The notes: generated by a model not told the origin, from the letters alone. 64,000 nucleotides of DNA from an uncultured archaeon (GCA_964421955.1 CAYQYU010000001.1:94210-158209); one strand, 5' to 3'. Positions 8,059 to 46,689 are shown, numbered from the stretch's first letter. Translations and numbers: made by a program.

Positions 8059-8133
8059 AGCGGGGTAGAGCAGCCAGGAGTGCTCGTCGGGCTCATAACC
8101 CGGAGGTCCGTGGTTCAAATCCACGCCCCGCTA
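8059..8133 (+). tRNA. initiator tRNA-Met (CAT)
   Basis: Cloverleaf; A1-U72; GGG/CCC anticodon stem around CTCATAA; TTCAAAT T-loop. Confidence 0.95.
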
Positions 8134-8237
8134 AAACTTCTGAAAGTTTTATCATCATAAACCATTCAATGACTGGCTTTCAGCGCTTGATCGAACTTAG
8201 CGCCTGAAGTTCGGTTCACTAATCCACGCCCCGCTAA
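8118..8237 (+). repeat. 17-bp direct repeat of the tRNA-iMet 3' end with a hairpin-rich spacer
   Basis: AATCCACGCCCCGCTAA at 8118-8134 and 8221-8237. Confidence 0.9.
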
Positions 8238-8362
8238 CGAACTTCTAGATTCGAAGACAGCGAGGTTTTCTGTAACCAGCAACCATTAGTTGCGGAAGTT
8301 TCGATCACTTTCAAATCATAGACCGGCGCCGTTTTAAATTCGAGTTTTTAGAATTTCTGGAC

Positions 8363-8794
8363 ATGATATCAGTATCTCATTTAATTTTTGGGCTTGCTCT
8401 GGCATATATTTTCGATAGGAGGCTTGTTACAGCGTCTATTTTCTCTATCGTGCCTGATTTCGATGTCACTTTTGACTTCCTTTATCCTTTTGTCCACCGA
8501 GGAATCATGCATTCGATGCTCGCCGCCGGTTTTTTCAGCCTCCTGACCTATATAGGGACTGAGGACCAGTTCTCGGCAGAAAGCTGCGCTATAGGCTACA
8601 TATCCCATCTTGCGCTCGACACTCTTACTCCTTCAGGCGTCCCGCTTCTCTTCCCTCTATCAAACAGTTTCTCGCTCTCCTTAACCTATGCAAACAGCCT
8701 AAAGTTTAATTCAGCGATAATAGCCCTTTCAGTAGGACTTATGCTTGTAAAGAAGAATACTGAGGTCTTCAGACCGTTTTTAAAAATTCTATGA
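8363..8794 (+). CDS. membrane-bound metal-dependent hydrolase (YdjM-like)
   Basis: SH, PDFD, HRGIMHS, SHLALD..TPSGVPLLFP motifs. Confidence 0.85.
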   Translation: MISVSHLIFGLALAYIFDRRLVTASIFSIVPDFDVTFDFLYPFVHRGIMHSMLAAGFFSLLTYIGTEDQFSAESCAIGYISHLALDTLTPSGVPLLFPLSNSFSLSLTYANSLKFNSAIIALSVGLMLVKKNTEVFRPFLKIL

Positions 8795-8954
8795 GCTTTT
8801 CGAGGTTGTCTGGAACCCGATCCGTTAACTTAAATAAAGGTTGTGAAGAAGGAAATTGGTAAGGCGCAGCATCGAGACACTCGATGTTGCTAAAAGCAAT
8901 ATTTCTCGAGAGAGAAATTTGCGGGGGAAGGGACCAGATAGAGGGTCTCAATTA

Positions 8955-9308
8955 ATGGAGAAAATAGGAAACGTCATAATTCGGACGATGGAAGATCTGT
9001 CAGGCATAGCAACGAATGGCTCAGCCCATATAAGGATCAACAAGGATATATGCGAACCCGAGAAGTTCCGGCACCTCTTCAACCATTTCTCCCGCGGAAC
9101 AATTCTTGAACGCCTGGACCTCAATGTCGAGCCTCTTGAAACACGGCTTAAATGCGGCTGCGGTCATGAAGAAGCAGTCAACGATGACCATTCCGGATAC
9201 AAGAAATGCCCTTCATGCGGCCGCTTCGCGGAAGTCCAGGACAACACCTACGAACTCGTGAGGCCGGATCCCTCCAAAGTAGGGAAGAGAAGAAGCATCC
9301 GGTTCTAG
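8955..9308 (+). CDS. HypA-like zinc-binding protein (lacks the N-terminal MHE)
   Basis: GTILERLDLNVEP..LKCGCG...CPSCG arrangement typical of HypA/HybF; ATG 8955. Confidence 0.6.
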   Translation: MEKIGNVIIRTMEDLSGIATNGSAHIRINKDICEPEKFRHLFNHFSRGTILERLDLNVEPLETRLKCGCGHEEAVNDDHSGYKKCPSCGRFAEVQDNTYELVRPDPSKVGKRRSIRF

Positions 9309-9392
9309 AGCACACTTAAAAAATTCTCGCATCCTCCTCACTATATCCCATGTCGGTTAGCTCTGCTAACCGTCTCTTTGCTCAAAGTTTGT

Positions 9393-9526
9393 GGGCCGGT
9401 AGCTCAGTCTGGCAGAGCGCGAGGCTCTTAAACACCTCAAGTCTCCGCAGGAGACGAGGACCCAGAAAATCTCCGATTTTCGATAGAGATACCTCGTCGT
9501 CGTGGGTTCAAATCCCATCCGGCCCG
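9393..9526 (+). tRNA. tRNA-Lys (CTT) with a 60-nt intron at 37/38 (9431-9490)
   Basis: GGGCCGG/CCGGCCC acceptor; CGAGG-CT-CTT-A|intron|A-CCTCG; CTCT/AGAG central helix with 3-nt bulges. Confidence 0.93.
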
Positions 9527-9587
9527 AGATTTGATATCCTCCAGAAAATCTTCGATTTTCGTCTGGGTTCAAATCCCATCCGGCCCG
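9503..9587 (+). repeat. 24-bp direct repeat of the tRNA-Lys 3' end
   Basis: TGGGTTCAAATCCCATCCGGCCCG at 9503-9526 and 9564-9587. Confidence 0.92.
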
Positions 9588-9622
9588 CATCTCTTTTACC
9601 ATTTGATACCTAAATTCTGGTT

Positions 9623-10105
9623 ATGGCCGAGCTATTCACCTTGATCGCGGCGGCCCTAATGATTCTTGCGGTCGTCGGAAGCTTTGTACCCATGATGCCC
9701 GGAGCGCTGCTTTCCATACTTGGTATCCTGGTCTACTGGTATGGCACAGGGTTCACACGTCCAAGCACATTTTTCCTGGTCGCCTTCATACTAACCAGTA
9801 TCTTTGCGGTGGCGATGGACTATTTTTCCGGCGTGATAGCAGCGAAGGCCGGAGGAGCATCCGCCCGGACATCTATCATAGCAGGAGCTGTTGGATTCCT
9901 GCTCTTCTTCGTGCTCGGCCCTCTCGGTATCCTGTTAGGAGTGGTGGGAACCGTGTTCATCCGGCAATACCTCCTCACCGGAGAGAAAGACCGGAGTCTC
10001 AGGACCGCGGCCTATTCTGCCGCCGGCGTACTTGGATCCGCAATAATCCAGTTCCTGGTGACCGTATCGCTCCTGGTGGCTTTCCTGATTACTCTCGTAG
10101 TCTAG
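9623..10105 (+). CDS. DUF456-like membrane protein
   Basis: GSFVPMMPG, DY..G..AAKAGGAS, GPLGILLG pattern; multiple TM segments. Confidence 0.8.
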   Translation: MAELFTLIAAALMILAVVGSFVPMMPGALLSILGILVYWYGTGFTRPSTFFLVAFILTSIFAVAMDYFSGVIAAKAGGASARTSIIAGAVGFLLFFVLGPLGILLGVVGTVFIRQYLLTGEKDRSLRTAAYSAAGVLGSAIIQFLVTVSLLVAFLITLVV

Positions 10106-10142
10106 AGAAAAACTATTATCTTACAGCCGGGAAAAATGATCT

Positions 10143-10634
10143 ATGGAGACCCCGGAATCAGAATTCGAGGCAGTTGCCACTCTCTGTTACATCATAGAAG
10201 ACGGCCGAGTGCTCTTAATCTACAAGAAACGCGGAATTGGAGAAGGACTGTATAACGGGCCTGGCGGCAAAGTAGAGCAACATGATGATTCCCCGAGAGA
10301 GGCAGCGAAAAGAGAGGTGAAAGAAGAGGTCAGGGTTGAGGTCGAAGATCTGGAGAAGGTCGGGGAACTCGAGTTCTACTTTGGAGACAGACCATTCATG
10401 TATGGACATATTTTCAAGACCTCTGAATACGAAGGTGAACCAGAAGAAACTGAAGAGGCGCGGCCGGAATGGTTCGAGATTGGATCACTACCCTACGACC
10501 AGATGTGGGAAGACGACCGCTACTGGATGCCCAAGATGTTCAACGGCAAGAAAATCAAAGCGAAGTTCCAGTTTGACGAAGACGGTGACGAATTTTACTG
10601 GGAGAAATCCGCCATCGGAAAGGCCAGCTTCTAG
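10143..10634 (+). CDS. NUDIX hydrolase, 8-oxo-dGTP diphosphatase (MTH1-like)
   Basis: KKRGIG..YNGPGGKVE..AAKREVKEE Nudix box; MWEDDRYW. Confidence 0.9.
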   Translation: METPESEFEAVATLCYIIEDGRVLLIYKKRGIGEGLYNGPGGKVEQHDDSPREAAKREVKEEVRVEVEDLEKVGELEFYFGDRPFMYGHIFKTSEYEGEPEETEEARPEWFEIGSLPYDQMWEDDRYWMPKMFNGKKIKAKFQFDEDGDEFYWEKSAIGKASF

Positions 10635-12562
10635 ACCATTTTCTCCGGGAAACCATTTACCTTTGTCTCGTATTCGCCGCCTTCGCCCGCGGCATTGAAA
10701 CCGTATTCACGGGAGAGATCGATCAATTCCTCCACAGACTCCTCATCAAGGACTCTTCTCTCCCAGCTTTCTTCCAGTCCGCGTGCCGCGACCGAGGTAA
10801 TCTCGACTTCAAAGCCTTCTCTCACAAGCCACCTCATGTAGTGTTCCTGATCTTCCTGCCAGAGCGGTGCGAAGACCTTCAGGCCAATTTTTTCCGCAAC
10901 TTTCTCGACCCGGTCCCTCTGGTAGGTCGATGCGAGAGCTCCTGCAACAACTCCTTCGACATCGTATTCCTCTCTGGCCTTTCTCAGGACTTTTTCCAGG
11001 TCTTCCAGCTCTTCTTCTTTCTCTCCCTCCGTTTCCTGGACTACTAGAGGGATACCCAGTTCCCCCGCCTGTCTCTCGAGTTCTGAAAGTTGTTTCTTCG
11101 AGTCGAACATGTAGCTGTCCCTGTTCTCCGACCGGAGTGTCACCAGGCAGGCGATCTCATTGTTGCGGCGGCGCATCCTGTAAAGTGCGGCATTCGAATC
11201 TTTGCCCCCAGAGGTCAACACAGCTAAACGGTGATTTGGCTCCTCTCTCAGCGAGTTGAGATACCCCTGCTTGGAATCGAAGCCATTATCTTTTGCGAGC
11301 CTCTCGACCGCCTTGTCGAAGTTGCTTCCATACTGGGCTGCGGTCTTCTCCCTCCAGGCCACGTCTTCAGGCACCCCCAGCTCCTCAGCCGCCTTCCTCA
11401 AAACGTATTTCCGGTAGCCCTCCTTCATCTTGTAATCCTCCGGAACCATAAGTGCGTGCTCCACCAGGTCGTGGTCAAGGAATAGAACCCTGAGTTCGTA
11501 GCTGTTCCTCATAGACACGACATCGTCCCTGTAAAGGTCGCGATGGAAAAGCGACCTCAGTCCCGAGAGACATTCGCGGTTCAGGTAGTTCTCCATTCTC
11601 GAGTACCCGGCGTAGAGCTGCTCCGACCCCAGGCCAGACATCACAACTTTCTCGTCGCCGTTCAAGGCCAGGTGGAACGGTAGCGCCACTCCCAGCTTCA
11701 CTACCGATGTTGAAGAGATCCAGTCCGCAAGTCTAGGTAGCACAGTCTCGACCTCTTCAAGCGAGGCATCGTAACTCCTGAGTTCCAATTCCATCTCTTC
11801 AGCAACTTTCTCCGCCCATTCTGTATCTCTGGGCGCATCAACATTACCGTGTTGTATTCCGGCAGTGTAGCAGGTGAAATCTCTCTCGAGTTCCTTTAGT
11901 GCGGCCGCAACCATAGTGGAGTCCACTCCGCCTGAGAACAATAATGCAAGTTCTCCATCTGGAACTCGTTTCTCAACTGCCTCCAGGAATTTTTCCTTTA
12001 TCTCCTCGGCAGCCTCTTCTATACTTTTACCTTCTTTGACATCTGTCTCGAAGAACTCTCGCTTCCGGAAGCTTAATTCTCCTGACTCTATATCGTACCT
12101 GAGTACCAGTCGTGGATGTAGCTCCTGGGCCTCCAGGCCTTCCTTTTCCAGCGCCTGTTTCTCGGAGGCGAAGGCAAAAGGCTTCCTGGAATACCAGACA
12201 GGTTTCACCCCCAGGAGGTCACGGGCCAGTATAACCTCTCCATTATTAAAATAGGCGAAAGCATAGACACCATCAAGCAACTCAAGCGCATCTTTACCCC
12301 TGGCTTCGAGCAGCTCCAGGAGGAGTTCAGCGTCATTTCTTACATCCAGGCTGTATTCTTCCGCTAGCTCCTGCCAGTTGTATATCTCGCAGTTCGCCAC
12401 CAGCGTTCCTTCTCTCTGGAGAGGCTGTTCGACATCTCCCACAACAGGATGAAGCACATGACCCAGCGGAAATTCGCCGCCATCAATTTTGCTGGAGCCA
12501 CCCCTGTGTTTGAGGTGCTTCGCCAGTTTCTCTGCCTTTTCGCCACCCGTTATGCCGCACAT
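10631..12562 (-). CDS. asparagine synthetase (AsnB)-like / diphthine--ammonia ligase (Dph6) fusion
   Basis: N-terminal MCGI Ntn glutaminase, FSGGVDS synthetase domain, then SGGKDS...GEGGEYET Dph6 domain in one frame. Confidence 0.88.
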   Translation of the reverse strand: MCGITGGEKAEKLAKHLKHRGGSSKIDGGEFPLGHVLHPVVGDVEQPLQREGTLVANCEIYNWQELAEEYSLDVRNDAELLLELLEARGKDALELLDGVYAFAYFNNGEVILARDLLGVKPVWYSRKPFAFASEKQALEKEGLEAQELHPRLVLRYDIESGELSFRKREFFETDVKEGKSIEEAAEEIKEKFLEAVEKRVPDGELALLFSGGVDSTMVAAALKELERDFTCYTAGIQHGNVDAPRDTEWAEKVAEEMELELRSYDASLEEVETVLPRLADWISSTSVVKLGVALPFHLALNGDEKVVMSGLGSEQLYAGYSRMENYLNRECLSGLRSLFHRDLYRDDVVSMRNSYELRVLFLDHDLVEHALMVPEDYKMKEGYRKYVLRKAAEELGVPEDVAWREKTAAQYGSNFDKAVERLAKDNGFDSKQGYLNSLREEPNHRLAVLTSGGKDSNAALYRMRRRNNEIACLVTLRSENRDSYMFDSKKQLSELERQAGELGIPLVVQETEGEKEEELEDLEKVLRKAREEYDVEGVVAGALASTYQRDRVEKVAEKIGLKVFAPLWQEDQEHYMRWLVREGFEVEITSVAARGLEESWERRVLDEESVEELIDLSREYGFNAAGEGGEYETKVNGFPEKMV

Positions 12563-12597
12563 GATCTAGAAAAAGGGTTGAAGCTTTTTGTAGCAAA

Positions 12598-13386
12598 TCA
12601 CTCCGCACTATAATCTGGACCGAAGTCGCTGATCTCTCGCTGGGACCTGTCGAGAGCCTCGTAACTTGCGATCACGTCCTCCATCTCGACCTCGACAAAT
12701 TCGAGATCGCGGTCCTCAAGATATGCGAGCACTTTTTCAGTCATCTTCGGCGCAACCAGAATGCCACGGATGTCTCCCCGGAACTCCTCTTCTATCTCAT
12801 CCACGTAGCGCTGGAGCTGGAGGACGGTGTTGTAGTCAGGGTTTCTCTTGACCTCTATTACAACGTAGTTGTCGCTCTCGTCGCGGGCGAAAACATCTAT
12901 GAAGCCAGCAGGTGTCTCTCGCTCCCTCTCGATCACTTTCAGGCCATCCTCGACTATCTCCGGTTTCTCCTCTATTGACTCATGGATATCCACTTCGTGG
13001 CCACGAATCTTCAGCTCAGACCTGTCGACCATTTTGTCGACAGAGAGAAAATCAATCTCCTCAAACCTTATCTCGACAAGTTCCTCGGGACTGGAACGCC
13101 GGGCCTCAACTACAAGCTCGCCGTATTCCTCATCCACCTTTACATTCCAGGAGTCGACCTCGGGCTGCCAGTTCTTCGGCTGGTAGTTGTCAGGGCCATG
13201 GACGAGTAACGCAGAGTCCTGCTTCTTGATGACGATGCGTTCTCCTCTATCCAGTTTCGACTTCGCGCGGCCCTGGTAGTTCACTGAGCATAGACCGTTG
13301 ACCTGGACCGTGTACTTGCGGGAGAGGTATTCTTGCAGCATCCGCTGGGCCTCCTCAAAATCTGGCTCTCGAGCGAACTCTTCCAT
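12598..13386 (-). CDS. nucS: endonuclease NucS/EndoMS
   Basis: YQGRAKS, PKNWQP, IDVFARD, VIEVKR, QLQRY. Confidence 0.93.
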   Translation of the reverse strand: MEEFAREPDFEEAQRMLQEYLSRKYTVQVNGLCSVNYQGRAKSKLDRGERIVIKKQDSALLVHGPDNYQPKNWQPEVDSWNVKVDEEYGELVVEARRSSPEELVEIRFEEIDFLSVDKMVDRSELKIRGHEVDIHESIEEKPEIVEDGLKVIERERETPAGFIDVFARDESDNYVVIEVKRNPDYNTVLQLQRYVDEIEEEFRGDIRGILVAPKMTEKVLAYLEDRDLEFVEVEMEDVIASYEALDRSQREISDFGPDYSAE

Positions 13387-13455
13387 GCCTCTGGGATGCC
13401 GGGGGAATTTTTTAGCTGTAACCTTTAACTTTCCAGGAGATCAAAACCACAATTT

Positions 13456-14127
13456 ATGGATTACAGGATCAAAGACCTACCTCAGGAAGAGCGGCCAAGA
13501 GAAAAACTGGAGAAACACGGCGCATCTTCACTTACAGAGGTTGAGCTTCTCTCAATCGTGTTAAGAACGGGAATTCCCGGCAAAAATGTGAAGGAGCTGG
13601 CTGGCGAGATACTGAACAGTTACTCCCTGCAGAATCTGGCAAACCGATCGCTTGAGGACCTGAAGGGCTTCGAAGGCGTATCAAAAGTGAAGGCCGGACA
13701 GCTCAAAGCAGTGGGAGAACTCGCGAGAAGAATGCAGGTCGAGAAAAGGGAGAGGATTGAGTCCTTCTCAGACGTGAAAGCCAGAGTGGAGGATATGAAG
13801 TATCTCGAAGAGGAGCGGCTGCGTGTCTTCTACCTATCCTCAGGGAATGAGATTTTATCTGAAGAGAATTTCGAAGGCGGCATTGATTCGGTCAACATCG
13901 ACTTCCGGAAACTGTTCCGGGAGGCCATAGGCTCAGGTGCATCCGCGGTAGTCTTGACACATAACCACCCCTCCGGAAACCCGGACCCAACCCCACAGGA
14001 TATCGAGGTCACAGAAGAGCTGATCGAGGCCGGAAACAGGCTCGGAATAAAGGTGCTGGATCACGTAATTATCGGAGAAACCGCCTCAAGCATGAAGGCC
14101 TCTGGAGCCGCAGATTTCACGTCCTAG
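13456..14127 (+). CDS. radC: RadC family protein (HhH + JAB domain)
   Basis: ERPREKL, ELLSIVLRTG, HNHPSGNPDPT..D, LDHVII. Confidence 0.93.
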   Translation: MDYRIKDLPQEERPREKLEKHGASSLTEVELLSIVLRTGIPGKNVKELAGEILNSYSLQNLANRSLEDLKGFEGVSKVKAGQLKAVGELARRMQVEKRERIESFSDVKARVEDMKYLEEERLRVFYLSSGNEILSEENFEGGIDSVNIDFRKLFREAIGSGASAVVLTHNHPSGNPDPTPQDIEVTEELIEAGNRLGIKVLDHVIIGETASSMKASGAADFTS

Positions 14128-14226
14128 ACACCCCCTTTAATACCTTTCGGTTAGACGTCACCACCTATTTAAAGATTACCCGTGTCTTGGTAGTTGTAGC
14201 TTTCTCAGGGAGGGATTCAAAAATAG

Positions 14227-14463
14227 ATGGCCATGGACATAACCGACCACGAAGCAGTTCCGGAACACAGGAAACTTGATGAAGAAGAAACCGAGGAAGT
14301 GCTTGAGAAGTACGGTGCGTCCCGAGACGACCTCCCAAAGATTCAGAGGACAGATGCCGCACTGAAGCAGATGGATGCCGAGGTCGGCGACATTATAGAG
14401 ATCCAGAGATCAAGTCCAACAGCGGGAGAAACCACCTATTATAGAGTGGTTGTAGAAGGGTGA
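14227..14463 (+). CDS. rpoH: RNA polymerase subunit H (Rpo5)
   Basis: HEAVPEH, LPKI, SPTAGETTYYRVV. Confidence 0.95.
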   Translation: MAMDITDHEAVPEHRKLDEEETEEVLEKYGASRDDLPKIQRTDAALKQMDAEVGDIIEIQRSSPTAGETTYYRVVVEG

Positions 14464-14470
14464 ATAAAGA

Positions 14471-15928: not shown

Positions 15929-16023
15929 ACTGATACTATGATAATGAACCCAAACCTCGAAACAAAGGTCACTTCGCCGCAGGCGAATGTGGCACAGATG
16001 ATGAAACTCTCTAGGTGAGTTTC

Positions 16024-17826: not shown

Positions 17827-17829
17827 GAG

Positions 17830-20295: not shown

Positions 20296-20305
20296 GGTAA
20301 TTTAA

Positions 20306-22253: not shown

Positions 22254-22274
22254 GGCTGGAAACAACTGGATTCT

Positions 22275-26316: not shown

Positions 26317-27585
26317 ATGGCTGACAAACCACACATTAACCTAGTATTCATCGGTCACGTCGACCACGGAAAGTCCACCACTATCGGACGGCTACTGTGG
26401 GAGACCGAAAACCTACCACAAGAGGAAATGAGGAAGCTAGAGGAAGCAGCGGAAGAAGCAGGTAAAGAGACCTTCTCATTCGCGTTCGCAATGGACAACC
26501 TGGAAGAAGAACGTGAAAGAGGAGTCACAATCGACCTTGCACACCAGGATTTCACAACTGACAACTACTACTTCACGATCATCGACGCACCTGGACACCG
26601 CGACTTCATTAAAAACATGATTACAGGTGCTTCACAGGCTGACGCCGCAGTTCTAGTTGTCGCGGCAGACGACGGAATTCAGCCACAGACCAAGGAGCAC
26701 GCCTACCTCGCAAAGACTCTGGGCATCGACCAGCTCATCGTGGCGGTCAACAAGATGGACCTGGAGGACTACGACGAGGGAGCTTACAACGACCTGAAAG
26801 ACGAAGTATCCGAGATGCTCCAGGGCGTAGGATTTGACACATCCAAGATTCCATTCGTACCTGTCTCTTCATTCGAGGGAGAAGGCGTAGTGGAAGAAAG
26901 CGACGAGACAGGATGGTACGACGGACCAACTCTGTACGACGCACTCGACGACCTTGAGGAGCCAGAGAAGGCAGTTGATCTGCCACTCAGGATTCCTGTA
27001 CAGGACGTCTACAAGATTTCCGGTATCGGAGCAGTCTCTGTCGGACGTGTCGAAACCGGAGAGATTTCCCAGGGAGACGACGTAACCTTCAAGCCCGCGG
27101 ATGTCGGTGGCGAAGTCAAGACCATCGAGATGCACCACGAGGAAGTTGACTCCGCGGAACCAGGGGATAACATCGGATGGAACACAAGAGGAGTAGGATC
27201 TGACGACATCAAGAAAGGAGACGTCGCAGGACCAGCAGACAACCCTCCAACAGTTGTCGACTCCTTCGAGGCGCAGGTCATCGTCCTCAACCACCCGAAC
27301 GTCATCTCGGAAGGTTACACACCGGTATTCCACGTCAACACGGCTCAGGTCTCATGCACATTCACAGACCTGAAGAAGACCATGAACCCGAAGACAGGTG
27401 AAACGATCGAGGAAGAACCTGACTACATTAAACAGGGGCAAGCAGCGATCGTAGAGATTACACCGCAGCAGCCGCTCGTCATCGAGGAGAACGACGACAT
27501 TCCACAGATGGCACGGTTCGCAATCAGGGACATGGGACAGACTGTCGGCGCAGGAATGGCCCTCAGCGTCGAAGAGAAGGAATAA
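26317..27585 (+). CDS. tuf: elongation factor EF-1alpha
   Basis: [31 protein letters not shown]. Confidence 0.97.
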
Positions 27586-28027: not shown

Positions 28028-28245
28028 CGCCGGGACTGGGATTTGAACCCGAAGCTCGCAGAACTGGAGCTTCTACTCTCAAATCCCGACTAGGCGTGAA
28101 ACGCCGGGACTGGGATTTGAACCCAGGAGGGCCGTCACGGCCCACCGGTTCTCAAGACCGGCACTTTTAGCCAGACTCAGTCATCCCGGCAGATTGTAAA
28201 TCTGCTGTGGATACAGAAACTCTTCAGAGTTTCGCATCCCGGCAG
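28028..28245 (-). repeat. duplications of both tRNA-Ser ends with hairpin spacers
   Basis: 23-bp CGCCGGGACTGGGATTTGAACCC at 28028-28050 and 28102-28124; 11-bp CATCCCGGCAG at 28182-28192 and 28235-28245. Confidence 0.9.
28102..28190 (-). tRNA. tRNA-Ser (TGA)
   Basis: Reverse complement GCCGGGA...CCGGT-CTTGAGA-ACCGG, long variable arm, TTCAAAT, TCCCGGC-G. Confidence 0.95.
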
Positions 28246-33014: not shown

Positions 33015-33023
33015 GAACTAAAA

Positions 33024-33782: not shown

Positions 33783-33788
33783 TAAGAC

Positions 33789-34058: not shown

Positions 34059-34069
34059 GTGGAAAAATA

Positions 34070-35168: not shown

Positions 35169-35179
35169 AGGTATCATAT

Positions 35180-35584: not shown

Positions 35585-35585
35585 C

Positions 35586-36692: not shown

Positions 36693-36698
36693 TTATCG

Positions 36699-36848
36699 AT
36701 GTCAAAGCACGAGAAGGTACAGATCTGGGAGAAATACAGCGACGATGGCAGCTACGAGGGCGAGAAATGTCCCCGGTGCGGTAGTTTCCTTGCAGAGCAC
36801 GAGGACCGCAAAAGTTGCGGCAAATGCGGCTACACCAAGCACGGATAG
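36699..36848 (+). CDS. rps27ae: 30S ribosomal protein S27ae (eS31); absent from the ORF track
   Basis: [49 protein letters not shown]. Confidence 0.93.
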
Positions 36849-36885
36849 ATTTCTCTTTTAACTCTTCCAACAGTATTTCTAGACT

Positions 36886-37866: not shown

Positions 37867-38441
37867 AGCAACAGATAAAGCGGGCCAGAGAAGCCCTGAA
37901 AGATGGCGGAATGGCGATCTTCCCGACTGAGACTGCCTACGGCATAGCCGTGGACGCGATGAATCCTGGTGCGGTGGAGAAAGTCTATGAGGCCAAAGGG
38001 AGACCGCGAGAGAAAGGTCTTACAGTGATAGTTGCCAGCCTGGAGCAGGCGGAAGAGCACGCAGAGCTTTCAGACGAGGATAGGAAGGTGGTGGAAGAGT
38101 TCATGCCTGGCCCGCTGACACTTGTAGTGGAGAAGAAACCAGAGGTCCCCGATATTCTCAACGAAAAATTTGTGTTCCGGATCTCTTCCAGCAGGATCGC
38201 CAGAGAGTTGGCAAGGAACAACCCCATTACCGCAACAAGCGCCAACATTTCAGGTACGAAGACTTCTTACCGGGTCGAGGATATCGACCCAGAACTACGG
38301 GAAATGGCGGACTACATTATCGACATCGGCGAACTCGAGCGTTCTCCCACCTCTACGATCGCAGAAGTTAATAACTCGCGTCTCGTCATTCACCGTAGAG
38401 GCCCGGTTACACGGGAACAGCTCGAAGACGTGCTAAAATAA
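37851..38441 (+). CDS. sua5: threonylcarbamoyl-AMP synthase (single-domain TsaC/YrdC type)
   Basis: FPTETAYG, KGRP, PGPLT, TATSANISG. Confidence 0.93.
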   Translation: MDLELEQQIKRAREALKDGGMAIFPTETAYGIAVDAMNPGAVEKVYEAKGRPREKGLTVIVASLEQAEEHAELSDEDRKVVEEFMPGPLTLVVEKKPEVPDILNEKFVFRISSSRIARELARNNPITATSANISGTKTSYRVEDIDPELREMADYIIDIGELERSPTSTIAEVNNSRLVIHRRGPVTREQLEDVLK

Positions 38442-40117: not shown

Positions 40118-41765
40118 AATCCTCACCCTGCTTACCGCGATCTTCGTGGTTTCCTCAGTGATGATATTCGTGATGGACCGGTTGTCCCACTCTGCGCTCC
40201 CCGCCTACATACTTGCCGGGGTGGTCATAGGAGTCTTTCTCGGGCAGAAAAGCCAGATAATTGGGCTCTCGCAGCTGGGCATAGCATTTCTGGTCTTCAT
40301 ATTCGGACTCAAGACAGAACCGGAGAGGATAAAATCCGTCGCCGGAGAGAGCGTCTCGACCACGGTCATACAGGTTCTGGTTATAGGAGCCACCACCTAT
40401 CTCTTCGCCCAGGGACTGGGGCTGGACCTGCTGAACACTCTTTACCTCGTGATAGCGGCCTCCCTGAGTTCCTCGCTAGTCGGGCTTGAACTCGCAGAGA
40501 AAGAGATCAGGATCGATCTGCTTCACGGGAGGCTCTCGGAATCCATACACCTCACACAGGACCTTATAGCCATAGCCGCAGTACTGGTGCTGTCGTCGGC
40601 AGTTATAACACCTTCCGCAGCGATATCAAACCTTTTCAAGGGAGCGCTCCTGATACTTCTCGCACTGATGGTGCGCTCAACCGCATTCCCGGTAATCTCC
40701 CGGCAGGTGAGCGAGTCAACGGAACTGACAATGTTCGCGGGAATAGCATTCCTCGCCACCTTCATAGGGGCAGCTTCCATACTGGGCATATCCATAGTCG
40801 TGGGTTCTTTCGCGGCCGGGCTCGCCGTAGCACGTTTCCCCTACAACATGGAGCTGCTCGAGAACATGGGATCGCTGAAGGACTTCTTCTCAGCGATCTT
40901 CTTCGTCTCACTCGGGGCGCTGGTAACAGTTCCGAGCATACAGGGGATTATACTCGCGATCTTCCTCATAGGAATCACCGTGGTACTCAAGCCGACCATA
41001 ACCGTTCTGGCGCTCCTGATCAGCGGCTACGACCAGCGGACATCACATCTCACCGCACTGTCGCTCGACCAGGTGAGCGAATTCGGCCTGATAATCGCTA
41101 TACAGGCATTCATAGCGGGCACGATACAGACCGAACTCTTCAACGCCATAGTTCTCGCCGCGGCAGTAACAATGATTACCTCCTCCTACACCAGCAAGAA
41201 CGAGGAACTCATATACCGTATTGTCTCACGGTACAGCACAGTCGATACCAACAGGAAGAAGATCGAAAAATGGACTTCCATGGACGAAGAGCTTAATGAC
41301 CACGTTATACTGATAGGCTACGACACACAGGGCAAGGAAATTGCGGAGGCCCTGAAAAAGGAAGGTCAGGAGTTCGTGATAGTTGAGAACGACCCCGAGA
41401 AGATAATGGAGGCGAAGGAAAAAGAGGAGAACTACATCTTCGGGGACGTCATGGACGAGAAAACATGGGAGATAGCAAAGGCGGAAAAGGCGAAGCTCGC
41501 AGTCTCGACAATACCACGCCACAAGGTATCGATGAAAATACTCGTCAGGGATAAACCAGAACACAAGATACTGAGATCAGGAGAAATAGAAAAGGCGGAA
41601 GATCTCCTGCACAAAGGCGCCCTGTACGTCGAGGTCCCGGACATCGTTGCAGCGGAAGAGCTGCTGGACCACATACGCGGAGTGATGGAGAACACCAACT
41701 ACCGCGAAGAACTCCGGAGAAGAAACCTTTTAGAGATAAGGAGATACCTTCAGTCCGAGGAGTAG
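40101..41765 (+). CDS. second Kef-type cation:proton antiporter with RCK domain
   Basis: LTQD, QVSEFG, HVILIGY..QG, IFGD. Confidence 0.9.
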   Translation: MVTLTEILTLLTAIFVVSSVMIFVMDRLSHSALPAYILAGVVIGVFLGQKSQIIGLSQLGIAFLVFIFGLKTEPERIKSVAGESVSTTVIQVLVIGATTYLFAQGLGLDLLNTLYLVIAASLSSSLVGLELAEKEIRIDLLHGRLSESIHLTQDLIAIAAVLVLSSAVITPSAAISNLFKGALLILLALMVRSTAFPVISRQVSESTELTMFAGIAFLATFIGAASILGISIVVGSFAAGLAVARFPYNMELLENMGSLKDFFSAIFFVSLGALVTVPSIQGIILAIFLIGITVVLKPTITVLALLISGYDQRTSHLTALSLDQVSEFGLIIAIQAFIAGTIQTELFNAIVLAAAVTMITSSYTSKNEELIYRIVSRYSTVDTNRKKIEKWTSMDEELNDHVILIGYDTQGKEIAEALKKEGQEFVIVENDPEKIMEAKEKEENYIFGDVMDEKTWEIAKAEKAKLAVSTIPRHKVSMKILVRDKPEHKILRSGEIEKAEDLLHKGALYVEVPDIVAAEELLDHIRGVMENTNYREELRRRNLLEIRRYLQSEE

Positions 41766-41768
41766 GAG

Positions 41769-42341
41769 ATGACAGAGATACAGGGCGCAGAGGCCACAGT
41801 TGAAATTGACGGAAACGTGATCAAGAAACGGCTGAGAAAGAACTACAGGCACCGCGAACTCGATGGAAGAATCAGGAAGGACAGGACCGGGAAAGAGGCC
41901 AGAATAATGAAAGAGGCACGGAAAAACGGCGCCCGCGTTCCAGAAGTGGAACAGGTCGATGACTACACCCTGGATATAGAGAAGATAGAAGGAGAACAGC
42001 TCAAAGACGTGCTGGAAGACAATATTGATGCGATGAGCGATCTCGGAAGGAACACGGCAAAGTTGCACGGCGCGGACATAATCCACGGAGACCTCACGAC
42101 CAGGAACACCATTCTATCCGACGAAATCTACCTTATCGACTTCGGTCTTGCCTCCCGGTCACAGAGGATAGAGGACCGGGCAGTCGACATACATCTCCTC
42201 AAACAGGTGCTCGAAAGTTCCCATCCGGGAGTCGCAGAGGAGGCATGGAAAAACTTCCGGGAAGGTTACCGGGAATACGAGAAGAGTGAAGAGGTCCTGG
42301 AAAGACTTGAAGAGGTTGAAAAAAGGGGTCGCTACAAGTGA
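41769..42341 (+). CDS. bud32: KEOPS kinase Bud32
   Basis: QGAEA, IIHGDLTTRN, IDFGL, EDRAVD, terminal RGRY. Confidence 0.95.
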   Translation: MTEIQGAEATVEIDGNVIKKRLRKNYRHRELDGRIRKDRTGKEARIMKEARKNGARVPEVEQVDDYTLDIEKIEGEQLKDVLEDNIDAMSDLGRNTAKLHGADIIHGDLTTRNTILSDEIYLIDFGLASRSQRIEDRAVDIHLLKQVLESSHPGVAEEAWKNFREGYREYEKSEEVLERLEEVEKRGRYK

Positions 42342-42342
42342 A

Positions 42343-43158
42343 TCAGTCGGCGACCGAGCGGAAAATTCCGGAGCCGCTGGCGTCGTCGATGTAGATGGTC
42401 ATATCCTCCGGCTCCGACGGGCATTCTCCACGCTCAATCGAATAGGTTCCGGAGACAGTCACGTTCTCGTCAGGTCTCGATCCCACAGTGTCATTCAGTG
42501 ATAATCTCTCCACGGTTCCTCCGCCTATAAGGTCTCGATTCCCGGGACTCATGAACACTGGTCGCGGATTATGCTCTTCTGAAATAGACAGGCAGCCCCT
42601 GAAACTGGGAACATCAACGTTACGGGACAGTAGAAAGTCGTTCCTGATCTCGAATACACCCACCTCGAACTCCACTCCCTCAACCACTTCAACTGTCTCG
42701 TGAAGCTCCAAGCTGTACTCGGGCTGCGGACCCATCACATCGAAAACAACGAGGACTGCCAGAACAGCTATTACACCGCCAAGCAACTTCCGGGCCTGAT
42801 CCTCGTCAAGACCGTAACCCTTCGCACTTCTAGCGTATCCCAGGCCGATAAATATTGCAGAAGATGCCGCGAGAATCAGGAATACCTGCTCACTGCTGAA
42901 CCCGAACCTTGCAAAGATGTAGACCAGAAAGCTGAGGTAGGAAAAGGCGGAGAAAATGTAGAAAGAAGACTTGAGTATACTCTCCCTGACGTACTCCGCG
43001 GTCCCGAGGAACATCGCAGTGCCCGAAAGAAGTATGAAGGACTTGACTGTGGGCGAGAGATCCAGAATCAGCTCGTGACCGAAATATATTATGGCAACAA
43101 CCCCCAGGAAAGCGCCCAGACCGTACAGGAGCTTTGATTCATCAATTTGGAAATCCAT
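42343..43158 (-). CDS. hypothetical membrane protein
   Basis: About 5 N-terminal TM helices and an extracellular C-terminal domain. Confidence 0.75.
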   Translation of the reverse strand: MDFQIDESKLLYGLGAFLGVVAIIYFGHELILDLSPTVKSFILLSGTAMFLGTAEYVRESILKSSFYIFSAFSYLSFLVYIFARFGFSSEQVFLILAASSAIFIGLGYARSAKGYGLDEDQARKLLGGVIAVLAVLVVFDVMGPQPEYSLELHETVEVVEGVEFEVGVFEIRNDFLLSRNVDVPSFRGCLSISEEHNPRPVFMSPGNRDLIGGGTVERLSLNDTVGSRPDENVTVSGTYSIERGECPSEPEDMTIYIDDASGSGIFRSVAD

Positions 43159-43244
43159 GGACACAAAATACCGGCTCTAGTTTAAAATACTCGTGGAATA
43201 TCCTGGGGATGTTTAAAAAAGTTCCTCGCAACCTTGATTCTAGA

Positions 43245-43416
43245 CCGGCAACGTCGGCAAGCTCGAAGCGAAGAACTATCTCTGAGTTATGAGGCCTTCG
43301 CTTCTCGGCGGAACCGGATCAGCAGGTGAACAAAGAATGAGAACCAACTCCAGACTTGCAGTGTACAACTATTTCAAAAACAGGTTTCCAGCGGTAGCTT
43401 ACGGAGGCGGATTCTA
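43245..43416 (+). promoter_or_regulatory. long structured leader of rps15
   Basis: TTTAAAAA at 43212; GAAGCGAAG/CTTCGCTTC stem closed by CCGG/CCGG. Confidence 0.45.
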
Positions 43417-43851
43417 GTGGCACGCATGCACTCGCGCAACCGGGGAAGCTCTGGATCCGACAAGCCAGTATCGAAGAAAGTTCCGCGCTGGGTTGACTAC
43501 GACGAGGAAGAGGTCATCGATCTTGTAGTGAAGCTCCGTGAAAAAGGCCTCGCACCGTCAGAGATTGGGCTCGAACTCCGGGATGAGTACGGAATCCCAT
43601 CAGTCCGGGAACTCACTGGAAAGAAGATAACGGAGATACTGGAGGACGAGGGAGTCAAGCCCGAACTTCCAGAGGACCTGAACAGTCTAGTTGAGAAGGC
43701 GGAATCCATCCAGGAACACCTTAAAGAAAACGAGAACGACGGTCATGCGGAGAGACAGCTGGAGCTGACCGAGGCCAAGATCAGAAGGATTGCGCAGTAT
43801 CATCGCGAGAACGGGAATATCGACGAGGACTGGAAATACGTCCGGGAATAA
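43417..43851 (+). CDS. rps15: 30S ribosomal protein S15 (uS15)
   Basis: MARMH..RGSSGS, PSEIG..LRD.YGIP, LPEDL. Confidence 0.96.
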   Translation: MARMHSRNRGSSGSDKPVSKKVPRWVDYDEEEVIDLVVKLREKGLAPSEIGLELRDEYGIPSVRELTGKKITEILEDEGVKPELPEDLNSLVEKAESIQEHLKENENDGHAERQLELTEAKIRRIAQYHRENGNIDEDWKYVRE

Positions 43852-43921
43852 TTAACTTTTCTCCGGCACTGAACAAAGGCATAAAAGATGAGACAGTTGA
43901 AACATTTTACAGTGATAGCTT

Positions 43922-45283
43922 TTGGTAAAAGACATTCTTGACTCTGCAAAGCCCGCGGCCGAGAAACTTGAGAAATTCGATGGAAAGATACGTCTGATCG
44001 GACAGTACGACGCAGACGGCATATGCGCAACCGCGATCGCCCACGAAATTCTTGAGAGACTCGGCAAAGATTTCGAGTATGAGATACTGAAGCAGCTCTA
44101 CCGGGAAGACGTTGAGAGACTCGCAGAAGAAGATGAGGAACTCCTGCTGTTCGTTGATATAGGATCCGGAAAGTCGGAGGCGATCCAGGAGCTGGTGGTC
44201 GAAGACGCGGGCAAAGAAGTCATAGTCTCAGACCACCACTCGCCCCAGGTAGAAGGAGATTTCATACATCTGAACCCTCACTTCCTTGGTCACGATGGAG
44301 GGGAGGCGATAAGCGCCGCCGGGATGACATACCTTCTCGCGGAGTCTGTAAGCCAGGACAATACGGATCTCGTGCCGCTGGCTCTCATAGGAGCGACGGG
44401 AGATATACAGAAGCAGGACGGAGAGTTCCTGGGACTGAACAGGGATTTACTGGAGCGAGCCGAGAAAAACAACCTTATCGACAGGAGGAAAGGACTTGAT
44501 CTCTACGGTCGTTCAACCAAGCCACTGCACAAGTCACTGATGTATACCTCTGATCCATATCTCGACGGCATATCCAACAACGAATCGGGCGCAATACAGT
44601 TCATACAGAGCTGTGGCGTCGATATAAGAGATAACGGAAGGTTCAAGACACTCGAAGATCTTGACCCTGAGGAAGAGAAGAAGATAATACACGGCCTGAT
44701 CAAGAGAGGTTACGACGTTGAATCACTGCTCCAGGACATCTACGTCCTTGACAACGGCCACGGAATCGACGAGTTCTCCACCATAATAAACGCCTGCGGT
44801 CGACTTGGCGAGCCAGAGAAGGGCGTCAGGATTCTGCTTGACGAGGACCTCAAGCTAGCGGAGAAAATCTCGAAGAAGTACGGCAGGAAAATCTCTTCAT
44901 CGCTCCGTTTCGTGGAAAACAACAGCGATAACGAGGAGTTCATCTACGAAAACGACATAGGCGTTATCGATGCCAGAGACAATATAGACGAGGACTTCAT
45001 AGGCACGGTAACAACAATCACGATGAGCGACGGCTTCTTTTCTTCCCCTGTGGTTGCGGGTCTCGCGCACGCTGAGAAGGATAAAATCAAGGTTTCCTGC
45101 CGGGCCACCAAGGAAGCGGTCGAGACCGGCCTCAACCTCGGAGAAATTATAGAGGAAATCTGCGAGGAAATCGATGGCGAAGGCGGCGGCCACAACGTCG
45201 CGGCAGGCGCAAAAATTCCACGGGAGAAGAAGGAAGAATTCCTAGAACAGCTGGACTCTGGTGTCAGGGAGTTCACGGACTAG
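43922..45283 (+). CDS. RecJ-like DHH/DHHA1 nuclease
   Basis: DADG, DIGSG, SDHH, NACGR, GGGHNVAAGA. Confidence 0.92.
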   Translation: MVKDILDSAKPAAEKLEKFDGKIRLIGQYDADGICATAIAHEILERLGKDFEYEILKQLYREDVERLAEEDEELLLFVDIGSGKSEAIQELVVEDAGKEVIVSDHHSPQVEGDFIHLNPHFLGHDGGEAISAAGMTYLLAESVSQDNTDLVPLALIGATGDIQKQDGEFLGLNRDLLERAEKNNLIDRRKGLDLYGRSTKPLHKSLMYTSDPYLDGISNNESGAIQFIQSCGVDIRDNGRFKTLEDLDPEEEKKIIHGLIKRGYDVESLLQDIYVLDNGHGIDEFSTIINACGRLGEPEKGVRILLDEDLKLAEKISKKYGRKISSSLRFVENNSDNEEFIYENDIGVIDARDNIDEDFIGTVTTITMSDGFFSSPVVAGLAHAEKDKIKVSCRATKEAVETGLNLGEIIEEICEEIDGEGGGHNVAAGAKIPREKKEEFLEQLDSGVREFTD

Positions 45284-45325
45284 AGCATCATACCGTTTAT
45301 AAAGTTTTGACTCGCGATCAGTAGC

Positions 45326-45880
45326 ATGGCCAAGGCTGTTATACAGAAAAACTGGTACGATATCCAGGCTCCGGACATATTCTCCGAGGACAAGATAGGA
45401 GAGACACCGGCGGAGAAAGAGTCGCAGCTAATCGACAGGAGGATCAGCAAAGACCTCACCTCGGTCTTCGATGGTACCGACAAGTACTACGTCGATGTCC
45501 ACTTCAGGGTGACCGATGTCGAAGGCAACAAGGCTTTCACAGAGATTGACGGAATGGAGTGCTCGAAGGAGTTCGTGTCCCGGATGGTCAGAAAGCGCTC
45601 TGACCGCATGGACCTTGTCCACGACACAGAAACCTCGGACGACAGGAAAGTCCGTGTAAAGGTAGTGGGAGCCACGGTAAGCAACACTTCTACAAAGACC
45701 CTCAAGGCCTCCAGAGAAGCAATCAAGGACGCAATCGACGAGAAAGCGTCGGAGCAGAGTTACGAGGAGCTGATGGAGAACATCTTCGCGGACAACCTCC
45801 AGAAAGGTATCAGGGACGCGGCCAACGGCATCTACCCGTTCAGGGAGCTTGAAGTCAGGAAGACAGAGCTTCTGGAATAA
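45326..45880 (+). CDS. rps3ae: 30S ribosomal protein S3ae (eS1)
   Basis: KNWYDIQAP..F, IGETPA, IYPFRELEVRK. Confidence 0.94.
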   Translation: MAKAVIQKNWYDIQAPDIFSEDKIGETPAEKESQLIDRRISKDLTSVFDGTDKYYVDVHFRVTDVEGNKAFTEIDGMECSKEFVSRMVRKRSDRMDLVHDTETSDDRKVRVKVVGATVSNTSTKTLKASREAIKDAIDEKASEQSYEELMENIFADNLQKGIRDAANGIYPFRELEVRKTELLE

Positions 45881-45911
45881 AAATATAAGCCGTCACACTA
45901 ACTTTTTCTCT

Positions 45912-46046
45912 ATGGCCCTGTTCTCCTACTTGGAGAAACTACAGTCAAAGCTAGCCGATGAGCCCTATGATGAGAGCCTTATCGAATACGGTGAGGGGCA
46001 AAGACCGGAAGAGGAACGTTTAGCAACTTTCAGTATTCTTGACTAA
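45912..46046 (+). CDS. putative 44-aa small protein
   Basis: ATG 45912 fills the gap: MALFSYLEKLQSKLADEPYDESLIEYGEG... Confidence 0.4.
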   Translation: MALFSYLEKLQSKLADEPYDESLIEYGEGQRPEEERLATFSILD

Positions 46047-46051
46047 CGATC

Positions 46052-46447
46052 TCAGTGCAGGATGAAGTCCAGGGCGTACATTCCCGGACCGACAAGGTAG
46101 AACATGAAAACCGCTCCAAGGAGAAGTAGATCGACCTCGTAACCGCCTGCAAACTCTTTATCCATCTTGTCAATCGCCACGTATGTTATGACACCCATGA
46201 AAAGAGTCAGCACAAGGGCGGCGACACGGGTGAAAAGACCGAGTGCAAGCATCGTTCCTGCAACCACCTCTACTCCCAGTGCGAGATAGACCAGGAATAT
46301 AGAGTCTGAAAGACCCAAGCTTGAGAAGAACTCTCTAGTGGACTCAGGGTCTTCAATCTTGGGAATCGCATGCGATACGAAAACTGCCCCGACAATTATC
46401 CGGAAGACTGCGAGTCCAAGAGACGTAAGAGCTACAGCACCCATCAT
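46052..46447 (-). CDS. DoxX family membrane protein
   Basis: RIIVGAVFVSHA..K, LGLFTR.AA, GGYE, GPG. Confidence 0.88.
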   Translation of the reverse strand: MMGAVALTSLGLAVFRIIVGAVFVSHAIPKIEDPESTREFFSSLGLSDSIFLVYLALGVEVVAGTMLALGLFTRVAALVLTLFMGVITYVAIDKMDKEFAGGYEVDLLLLGAVFMFYLVGPGMYALDFILH

Positions 46448-46531
46448 AACTACACAGAAATTGTTCAGGCCGGTTTAAAAAGACCACTTTGTCAAATGAG
46501 AGTGAAGACACCCTTCCATATACCACTAGAT

Positions 46532-46689
46532 GCCGGGGTAGCCAAGTCAGGCCAAACTCTCACGAGTTTAGCCACGAACCATCTCCTTCCGGAGAAAGTT
46601 CGAGGCCCAAAGGCTCCAAGAGGACCATAGGCGATGGATTCAAGACCCATTCCCGCAGGGGTTCGCCGGTTCAAATCCGGTCCCCGGCA
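46532..46689 (+). tRNA. tRNA-Leu (CAA) with a 73-nt non-canonical D-loop intron (46556-46628)
   Basis: Removing 46556-46628 yields GCCGGGGTAGCCAAGTCAGGCCAAAGGCGATGGATTCAAGACCCAT...TTCAAATCCGGTCCCCGGCA; BHB-like motif at the junction. Confidence 0.9.

Follow-up and report, generated by a model that had tools for sequence, protein, structure and literature searches.

Palindromic cassettes with direct and inverted copies of tRNA ends beside tRNA genes of Nanohaloarchaeota

Many of the tRNA genes of an uncultured, tiny, halophilic archaeon and of its relatives are accompanied by small, non-coding, palindromic cassettes that hold direct copies, and in part inverted copies, of the ends of the tRNAs beside which they stand. 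They came to light in a stretch of 64,000 nucleotides (GCA_964421955.1 CAYQYU010000001.1:94210-158209; here called the window), which represents positions 94210-158209 of contig 1 of a genome of 0.92 Mb that is present in 27 contigs and is 98.8% complete (G000). Outward from the tRNA their order in this genome is constant: the tRNA end is followed by a short loop that often reads TTTCA, by an inverted, imperfect copy of the end, by one or more hairpins, and by a direct copy. As a tentative explanation, we favor the possibility that the cassettes are neutral or selfish, that they pass from one tRNA gene to another when DNA copying strays and resumes at the T-loop, and that they lie in the leaders and trailers that are discarded during maturation. 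A preliminary description of the window, made from its sequence alone, had placed the host in the Nanohaloarchaeota, and the EF-1alpha gene at 26317-27585, with 82-86% identity to EF-1alpha of Nanohaloarchaea, bears this out.

ARAGORN, run with introns allowed, predicted 40 tRNA genes in G000, 29 of them with introns of 42-190 nt. The five tRNA genes of the window are those for iMet, Lys-CTT, Ser-TGA, Leu-CAA, and Pro-GGG (Table 1). Each flank was compared with 1000 dinucleotide shuffles of itself, and the counts given here are the numbers of shuffles that reached the observed score. Direct copies of the 3' end were found behind iMet (23 nt, 17 nt of which are exact), Lys (24 nt), and Ser (23 nt), with no shuffle scoring as high at any of the three, and an 11-nt direct copy of the 5' end (CTGCCGGGATG) was found in front of Ser (5/1000 shuffles). 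These copies sit 36-86 nt from the tRNA end, and the spacers are free of genes. The iMet copy has a 2-nt insertion in the T-loop, its exact stretch of 17 nt running from 8221 to 8237, while the 5' copy at Ser lies upstream of the tRNA and downstream of a conserved promoter-like box, TAATTTAAA. No copy was detected by the shuffle test at the Pro locus or in either flank of Leu.

The inverted copy is best seen behind tRNA-Ser (TCAAATCCC), where it exceeds chance (4/1000 shuffles). On the tRNA strand it reads TTTCA-CGCC-TAGTC-GGGATTTGA, in which CGCC pairs with the terminal GGCG of the tRNA and GGGATTTGA pairs with the T-loop, leaving the center unpaired. The preliminary description had proposed a common direct-inverted-direct layout at iMet, Lys, Ser, and Leu. 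Its direct copies stand, as does the inverted copy at the Ser 3' end; the inverted copies at Lys (276/1000) and iMet (528/1000), taken alone, are not above chance, and what was inserted in Leu is an intron. The shuffle score did not pick up the split inverted copy of the Ser leader, which recurs in relatives. Individual hairpins recur as well. The trailer hairpin that abuts tRNA-iMet stands, together with ATCATCATAA, past the distal copy at tRNA-Glu-TTC and in L048 (L-numbers are labels for tRNA-bearing sequences from other archaeal genomes), and the hairpin is also found past the distal copy at other loci. The hairpin of the Ser leader is present in the tRNA-Ser leaders of L004, L005, L006, L016, L017, and L145. 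The Lys trailer cassette, which we call type D, comprises an inverted T-loop piece, GATTTGA (9528-9534), and CTCCA with the hairpin GAAAATC-TTC-GATTTTC (9544-9560).

The layout is real and extends beyond the window, both genome-wide and across the lineage, much more widely than the preliminary description could show. A copy of the 3' end of at least 10 nt lies within 300 nt downstream of 8 of the 40 tRNA genes of G000, compared with 1.3% of random loci (n = 4985), which is a 15-fold excess. Upstream copies of the 5' end accompany 3 of the 40 (1.2% of random loci), and inverted copies of at least 9 nt, 14-24 nt past the tRNA, accompany 5 of the 40 (2.1% of random loci). Perfect 7-bp hairpins are likewise concentrated, 107 of 619 being located in the 2.7% of the genome near tRNAs. 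The resemblance between hairpins at different loci, also noted in the preliminary description, was confirmed by this census and by 46 flank-to-flank matches between tRNA loci, against 1 with controls. The trailers of Ser-TGA and Ser-CGA are identical over 73/73 nt and the spacers of Glu-CTC and Glu-TTC are identical, while the respective tRNA bodies differ. Serial arrays of two to three copies occur at Ser-CGA and in L027, L052, and L054. Hairpin clusters away from called tRNAs, on contigs 3, 8, 9, 12, 13, and 15, gave Rfam matches to tRNAs only. At the start of contig 8 (12-252), the hairpin GAACTTT-GCGCA-AAAGTTC is repeated three times with a spacing of 111 nt, and this triplet had no Rfam match.

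Among relatives, the cassette behind tRNA-Ser, termed type A, could be followed with the pattern GG(G)ATTTGA, TGNNA, GAAGCTCC-loop-GCGAGCTTC, GGGTTCAAATC. Among 70 genomes of the order, 18 yielded exact matches, 33 in total and 1-5 in each; these are confined to a single family, and the reversed pattern, used as a control, gave none. A search of viral contigs with the pattern gave no match. An identical 32-mer with the loop AGTTCT is present in 7 genomes. The tRNAs that precede type A cassettes belong to five amino-acid families (Ser, Leu, Arg, Met, and Tyr). The orientation relative to the tRNA is the same in all cassettes seen, and the cassette core is conserved across genera while the neighboring non-coding DNA is not. 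When relatives were searched with the Ser region, matches extending across the cassette came from many genera of the family and also from two further families within the order. For 26 type A cassettes upstream sequence was available; the distance from the T-loop of the tRNA to the 3' arm of the hairpin is 114 nt in L015 and 56-75 nt in the 25 others. The 28 tRNA-Ser loci compared in relatives include 13 with a downstream copy of at least 12 nt and 6 with an upstream copy of at least 9 nt, and about half are without any. The same design is seen in further cassette types, namely B, C, and D, with type D found at the Lys gene of the window and at the Pro gene of L144.

The cassettes are locally templated. 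We examined 30 type A matches, of which 1 was spurious, 3 lacked upstream sequence at a contig end, and 1 was cut by a contig end, leaving 25 that could be evaluated. In 21 of these, the 14 nt past the cassette T-loop match the adjacent tRNA at 12-14 positions; in the remaining 4 the copy is broken by further hairpins and the local tail lies further on. In the distal copy, the 5' part of the T-stem reads as a generic GGG also beside tRNAs with CGG, GAG, TGG, or AGG, which indicates that the cassette brings the T-loop and the target supplies the tail. When 21 cassettes were aligned, 90.2% of the cells paired, and the inverted copy tracked the local T-stem, with 6 pairs changed on both sides compared with 2.9 +/- 0.9 after shuffling (0/500 as high). 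In the type A hairpin itself 99.3% of the cells are paired, and two pairs show compensatory change. Tails are not always those of the adjoining gene. The tRNA-Pro-CGG gene of L144 is followed by a cassette whose distal copy bears the tail of tRNA-Arg-TCG, and then by a second cassette, while the other contig end of the same relative (L143) holds a cassette and then the Pro tail; here, tails of foreign tRNAs seem to travel with the cassettes, which also seem to interrupt assemblies.

The layout also exists outside the phylum. Direct copies, most of them with an inverted one, were found behind tRNA-Ala-CGC in two Haloferax, one Haloglomus, and two "Euryarchaeota archaeon Ods" records (L087, L093, L077, L075, and L076), adjoining the EF-1alpha/S10 genes. 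No such layout is present at the same tRNA-Ala-CGC locus in Haloferax prahovense and H. marisrubri. Copies of at least 12 nt accompanied 7 of 23 tRNAs of halophiles and 0 of 8 of other archaea, in a sample that is small and in which two flanks were shortened.

The inserts within tRNA-Lys and tRNA-Leu, which the preliminary description had grouped with the flanking ones, are tRNA introns and are distinct from the flank cassettes. Both lie inside the mature tRNA, as do archaeal introns of the bulge-helix-bulge (BHB) kind, and the iMet, Lys 3', and Ser cassettes do not. The window encodes a tRNA splicing endonuclease, which is the sole EndA match in G000. The Lys intron folds into a 5-bp stem, a 3-nt bulge (AUA), and a 4-bp helix (CUCU/AGAG), and contains the hairpin GAAAATC-TCC-GATTTTC (9465-9481). 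The gene at 46532-46689 was called by ARAGORN as Arg-CCG with an intron, and from comparison with L052 we read it as Leu-CAA. Its intron contains hairpins and a near copy of the spliced junction (AGGCCCAAAGGC); the direct copy was reached in 16/1000 shuffles, an inverted copy was not significant (109/1000), and no BHB motif could be drawn from the fold. In a second Leu D-loop intron, on contig 15, the copies are not above chance (680 and 700/1000). Among the 29 canonical introns of G000, only 1 has a copy of at least 5 nt of the start of exon 2.

What flanks and introns have in common are hairpin modules, and not the duplication layout. After removal of two trivial overlaps, 20 intron-to-flank matches remained in 77 flanks of G000, compared with 2 in 770 control segments. 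The Lys type D cassette and the hairpin region of the Lys intron are alike at 21 of 22 nt, and the Arg-CCT trailer contains most of a module found in the introns of Lys-CTT, Lys-TTT, Arg-TCG, and Thr-TGT. We also considered that the trailer cassettes might themselves be spliced, and searched for splice sites in the proximal and distal copies by hand and in folds; this reading was rejected because the loops are symmetric internal loops and not staggered 3-nt bulges. In tRNA-Glu-CTC (contig 2, 72458-72600), a D-loop insert follows GGCCAAA, at the same place as in both tRNA-Leu genes, and one stretch of it resembles the anticodon stem of tRNA-Glu-TTC.

The junctions provide further information on how the cassettes may have arisen. 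At 3' ends the right border is always the generic T-loop, followed by the local T-stem and the 3' strand of the acceptor. The left border varies, and L007, L014, and L052 have an additional 8-16 nt of native trailer in duplicate; cassettes often begin past a T-rich stretch. The target duplication has no fixed length and ranges from 13 nt to approximately 35 nt (L007). The inverted T-loop piece and the T-loop copy, both of which are partly copies of the target, pair over 8-11 nt. Since two precise junctions are expected of a site-specific recombinase, one ragged junction together with one fixed at the longest sequence shared by tRNAs suggests copying with a return by homology, and the fold-back or template-switch synthesis invoked in the preliminary description thus fits better than site-specific integration. 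The cassettes also appear to turn over, as tRNA-Ser-TGA carries different cassette types in L007 and L014, which are of one genus, and distal copies are decayed or interrupted in L037, L038, L017, L056, and L139 and at Ser-GGA of G000.

In the mechanism that we propose, cassettes would colonize those parts of tRNA genes of Nanohaloarchaeota that are transcribed but discarded, mostly 3' trailers and sometimes 5' leaders. Each is made up of an imperfect inverted copy of the tRNA end, one or more hairpin modules of 7-8 bp drawn from a pool common to many tRNA loci and introns, and a direct copy. DNA synthesis near the end of a tRNA gene would leave its template, often at the T-rich trailer, and the strayed synthesis would either copy a cassette from another tRNA locus or fold back on the quasi-palindromic T-arm. 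It would return to its own template at the T-loop, the longest sequence common to nearly all tRNA genes, and the tail of the tRNA would therefore be copied a second time. No dedicated enzyme would be required. Maturation of archaeal tRNAs involves cleavage by RNase P and RNase Z at the complete tRNA, so that a cassette would be discarded and nearly neutral; a full-length RNase P RNA candidate (49 bits versus the curated 84 bits) is taken only as a hint of RNase P. Selection would act mainly to keep the cassette self-folded, so that its antisense piece cannot trap the tRNA. The data themselves establish the anatomy of the cassettes, their copy number, local templating, distribution, and the modules held in common with introns; that they arise by copying, are transcribed, and are neutral is inferred.

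Several observations weigh against this mechanism. No intermediate, no pair of empty and filled alleles, and no read-level polymorphism was seen, in material that consisted of Logan contigs only. Template switching alone cannot move a cassette between genomes, and the 32-mer that is identical in 7 genomes, which belong to several genera, therefore calls for horizontal exchange or strong constraint. The conservation of the type A hairpin, its compensatory changes, and the G-U pairs that maintain a short helix of the trailer with the tRNA 3' end in L145 and L044 point to selection at the RNA level. Better pairing with the 5' acceptor strand is shown by the distal than by the proximal copy in L140 and L142, which would be unexpected if the distal copy were discarded. 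The 5' acceptor sequences are specific to each tRNA, and microhomology thus explains the 5' cassettes poorly. Finally, the direct repeat reaches from the T-loop to the 3' end, as does the classical attachment (att) core of integrases, and a true integrase-linked case exists in G000 at tRNA-Gly.

That case is at tRNA-Gly-TCC (contig 6, 61863-63698), which is followed by 620 nt of A+T-rich DNA, a second copy of the 3' end, and then a gene for a 448-aa tyrosine recombinase, with a third copy of the end on contig 21 at position 266. It looks like an ordinary (tandem) integrated element; its att copies are true and distant, but it has none of the hairpins or arms of the cassettes. Altogether G000 encodes four tyrosine recombinases, three of which adjoin tRNA genes and all of which lie at loci other than those of the cassettes. 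The trans-acting HUH/RAYT-like nuclease that had been thought conceivable found no counterpart, as neither an HUH/Y1 transposase (PF01797) nor a reverse transcriptase nor Cas1 was detected in this 98.8% complete genome.

These data bear on several other explanations. Chance similarity or an assembly artefact can in practice be excluded. Unitigs do break at repeats, one Logan unitig ending at 28054 at the Ser repeat, and several cassettes are located at contig ends. The unitig joints at the tRNAs have short sides, appear to derive from tRNAs of other organisms, and speak neither for nor against an artefact. However, three loci were matched by none of the 1000 shuffles, the excess over random loci is 15-fold, and an artefact of assembly is unlikely because the same layout is seen in many independent assemblies, single-contig genomes included. 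It is quite improbable that the cassettes are decayed att scars, left when large viruses or plasmids that once stood between the copies were deleted almost entirely, with only their arms remaining. The direct repeat (17-24 nt at iMet, Lys, and Ser) does cover the T-loop to 3' end core of tRNA-integrating elements (14 bp at the tRNA gene 3' end, with conserved arms, in the accessible text of PMC5861418), native trailer follows the distal copy as it would an attR, the integrated element at tRNA-Gly is real, and the layout extends to Haloferax, which the same text describes as rich in such elements. Yet the spacers of the window hold no element genes, and no type A cassette has its T-loop kilobases away. 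The right arm is conserved while the left varies, and one core serves tRNA species of five families instead of a single target, remaining conserved across genera beside DNA that is not. Modules are shared with introns, copies of 5' ends exist, viral contigs gave no match, and the true tRNA-Gly element is without such arms.

Instead of relics, the cassettes might be miniature, non-autonomous integrative elements whose folded single-strand or tiny-duplex site mimics the region from the T-loop to the 3' end and is inserted in trans by resident tyrosine integrases. The order of site, loop, inverted site, rest, and site is what would result from integration of a circle with a folded hairpin attP, as we understand it from the CTX phage, and the pairing of the inverted copy, which engages the T-loop and the terminal 4-6 nt of the tRNA and leaves the center free, resembles an unpaired overlap region. 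The repeat covers the classical att core, three of the four tyrosine recombinases are beside tRNA genes with the true tRNA-Gly att copies adjoining one, and serial arrays occur. We nevertheless consider this explanation unlikely. A site-specific element would need a separate tail for each tRNA, and a single core is seen behind five or more tRNA families, the tails being perfectly local; conservation is lacking at the left junction, where trailer is sometimes duplicated, the 5'-end and D-loop cases are outside the usual att positions, there was no match to viral contigs, and we know of no way in which a circle of approximately 73 nt could replicate. Another view, which we regard as doubtful, is that these are functional pre-tRNA elements, whose leader and trailer hairpins and sense and antisense copies are selected as RNA for steering or timing of processing, protection of the precursor, or prevention of misfolding in a high-salt cytoplasm, and which spread by gene conversion. 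The nearly complete pairing of the type A hairpin with its compensatory changes, the transcribed-strand G-U pairs of the helix formed with the tRNA 3' end (L145 and L044), and the better pairing of the distal copy with the 5' strand in L140 and L142 would all be accounted for, as would the fixed orientation, the confinement of the modules to tRNA transcripts (introns, leaders, and trailers), and the recurrence in halophiles, within the limits of that small sample. A selected function is harder to reconcile with the patchy presence of the cassettes, type A being found in 18 of 70 genomes and about half of the tRNA-Ser loci and most tRNAs of G000 being without one. Different types at the same tRNA within one genus and the decay of distal copies also speak against it, no BHB motif can be drawn for the trailer cassettes, and a cassette that follows an oligo-T tract may go untranscribed.

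When compared with known systems, the cassettes share traits with several of them. Miniature inverted-repeat transposable elements (MITEs), repetitive extragenic palindromic (REP) sequences, and bacterial interspersed mosaic elements (BIMEs) are short, non-coding, multi-copy, hairpin-forming palindromic repeats. The cassettes are similar in these respects and in their ends, which resemble inverted repeats, and the 1-5 type A matches in each of 18 genomes correspond to the several near-identical copies per genome that are typical of MITEs. They differ in that their target duplication is not of fixed length (13 to approximately 35 nt) and is partly inverted-templated, in that they are strictly at tRNA genes, and in that no Y1/RAYT gene was found; as for a cognate transposase, Y1, reverse transcriptase, and Cas1 were not found, and DDE families were not searched. 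The attP(+) site of the CTX phage and the attC sites of integrons are folded single-strand recombination sites. As with these, we see an imperfect hairpin that mimics a duplex target with an unpaired center, in the order site, inverted site, site; unlike them, the cassettes have tRNA-specific tails, and no single-stranded replicon or dedicated integrase is known here. Inverted triplications, including those termed DUP-TRP/INV-DUP (duplication-triplication/inverted duplication) and those formed by quasipalindrome switching, arise from template switching during replication. They show the same direct, inverted, direct order, with junctions at short homologies or hairpin tips, but the cassettes are recurrent, heritable, and found between genomes, and they have a conserved foreign hairpin at one turn.

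The transposition of BHB introns between tRNA genes in Thermoproteales was reportedly described by Fujishima et al. in 2010, and it is used as a positive control in the portion of a bioRxiv preprint that we consulted (10.64898/2026.10.13.758758). In both cases related intervening sequences are common to different tRNA species of one genome; cassette modules differ in being present in leaders and trailers as well and in being tied to duplications of tRNA ends. Casposons duplicate 14-15 bp of their target. Their insertion at tRNA 3' ends (PMC5137440, available portion) parallels the cassettes in the choice of target and the duplication of its last 14 bp or so; cassettes, of approximately 50 nt, have a duplication of unfixed length, and no Cas1 was found in G000. 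In Caldiarchaeum, fragments of tRNA genes beside a mobile element are offered as a model for the disruption of tRNA genes in the accessible part of PMC3293823. A duplicated piece of a tRNA gene next to inserted DNA is common to both, but that insert is 1.8 kb and encodes a recombinase, whereas the cassettes are tens of bases, non-coding, and with an inverted copy. Parallels are also found in the att duplications of tRNA-integrating archaeal elements with tyrosine integrases, such as those of the SNJ2 type, as presented in the available portions of PMC5861418 (see also PMC8371274). Direct repeats from the T-loop to the end, native DNA past the distal copy, serial arrays, and integrases beside tRNA genes of the same genome are shared. 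The cassettes differ by their gene-free spacers of 36-130 nt, the inverted copy, the use of one core for many tRNA species with local tails, the ragged left junction, and the 5' copies.

No description of duplicated tRNA ends with inverted copies was found in the literature searched, supplements not covered, and the accessible parts of papers on nanohaloarchaeal genomes give tRNA counts and in part intron counts, with nothing on cassettes. A tRNA-linked cassette repeat of this kind is thus apparently undescribed. The features of the window are listed in Table 1.

Table 1. Coordinates of tRNA genes, cassette parts, and the splicing endonuclease gene in the window (positions from its first nucleotide)
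Feature	Position	Strand	Basis
Gene for tRNA splicing endonuclease (194 aa) with EndA domains at the N- and C-terminus	5180..5764	-	domain search
tRNA-iMet (CAT), intronless	8059..8133	+	Rfam, 58.4 bits; ARAGORN
Trailer hairpin AAACTT-CTGA-AAGTTT, abutting tRNA-iMet	8134..8149	+	sequence; comparison
Hairpin CGAACTT-(8 nt)-AAGTTCG, abutting the iMet distal copy upstream	8192..8213	+	sequence; 7-bp hairpin census
Distal direct copy, iMet T-loop to 3' end	8214..8236	+	0/1000 shuffles
tRNA-Lys (CTT), canonical intron at about 9431-9490	9393..9526	+	Rfam, 51.2 bits; ARAGORN (intron)
Lys trailer cassette (type D)	9528..9563	+	sequence; cassette recurs in L144 behind tRNA-Pro
Exact distal direct copy (24 nt), Lys T-arm to 3' end	9564..9587	+	0/1000 shuffles
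Distal direct copy (23 nt exact), Ser T-arm to 3' end	28028..28050	-	0/1000 shuffles
Conserved type A hairpin GAAGCTC C-AGTTCT-GC GAGCTTC	28051..28073	-	pattern matches; covariation
Inverted partial copy, Ser 3' end	28079..28101	-	4/1000 shuffles; covaries with local T-stem in 21 cassettes
tRNA-Ser (TGA), intronless	28102..28190	-	Rfam, 53.8 bits; ARAGORN
Split inverted copy of Ser 5' end in leader, ATCC-ACA-GCAG on tRNA strand	28202..28212	-	read from sequence
Leader hairpin GAAACTC-TGAA-GAGTTTC	28216..28233	-	sequence; hairpin census
Distal direct copy of Ser 5' end (CTGCCGGGATG)	28235..28245	-	5/1000 shuffles
tRNA-Leu (CAA), 73-nt D-loop intron at about 46557-46629	46532..46689	+	sequence reading; uninterrupted homologue L052
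tRNA-Pro (GGG), negative locus without duplication	59657..59731	+	ARAGORN; shuffle test

Some further features of the genome are recorded here. Directly downstream of tRNA-Pro-GGG the G+C content falls from approximately 0.51 to 0.41-0.43 (window positions 60001-64000), and an open reading frame (ORF) of 918 aa is present at 61219-63975; this may represent an island at that tRNA, and on this side no copy of the tRNA end was found within 130 nt downstream. A strong positive AT skew (0.2-0.35) is seen at 14000-38000 and 50000-58000 of the window, where ORFs of at least 500 aa are all on the plus strand. Outside the window, the 71-nt tRNA-Cys-GCA gene (G000 contig 1, 8372-8442) and tRNA-Ser-CGA have nearly identical acceptor ends, agreeing over 14 nt on the 5' side and at 16/17 nt on the 3' side, as is likewise the case in the relative L040.

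A broader possibility is that an intrinsic fold-back or copy mechanism at the tRNA genes of halophilic archaea adds mobile hairpin modules and, along with them, copies of the target in inverted and direct orientation, seeding new introns when it acts within the gene, as in the D-loop introns of tRNA-Leu, and leaving the leader and trailer cassettes as its footprints outside. We regard this as rather unlikely. If it were true, an inverted copy inside the gene would supply the exon-intron helix, and the same process would therefore create new tRNA introns. The accessible text of the 2026 preprint cited above (10.64898/2026.10.13.758758) calls the arrival of archaeal tRNA introns an open question, and fold-back insertion would then be a concrete route by which they arrive. 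Cultured pairs of nanohaloarchaea and their hosts exist (PMC10266531), and with the occurrence of the layout in Haloferax this makes the question amenable to experiment.

In practical terms, the cassettes break short-read assemblies at tRNA genes, create false extra 3' halves of tRNAs, and can mislead callers of att sites and genomic islands. tRNA genes are classic landing sites for mobile DNA, and those of archaea are rich in introns of unknown origin. As the cassettes are small and numerous, retain their junctions, and share modules with introns, they may preserve the footprint of DNA entry into tRNA genes. This raises the possibility that they show how extra DNA, introns included, enters the tRNA genes of archaea.

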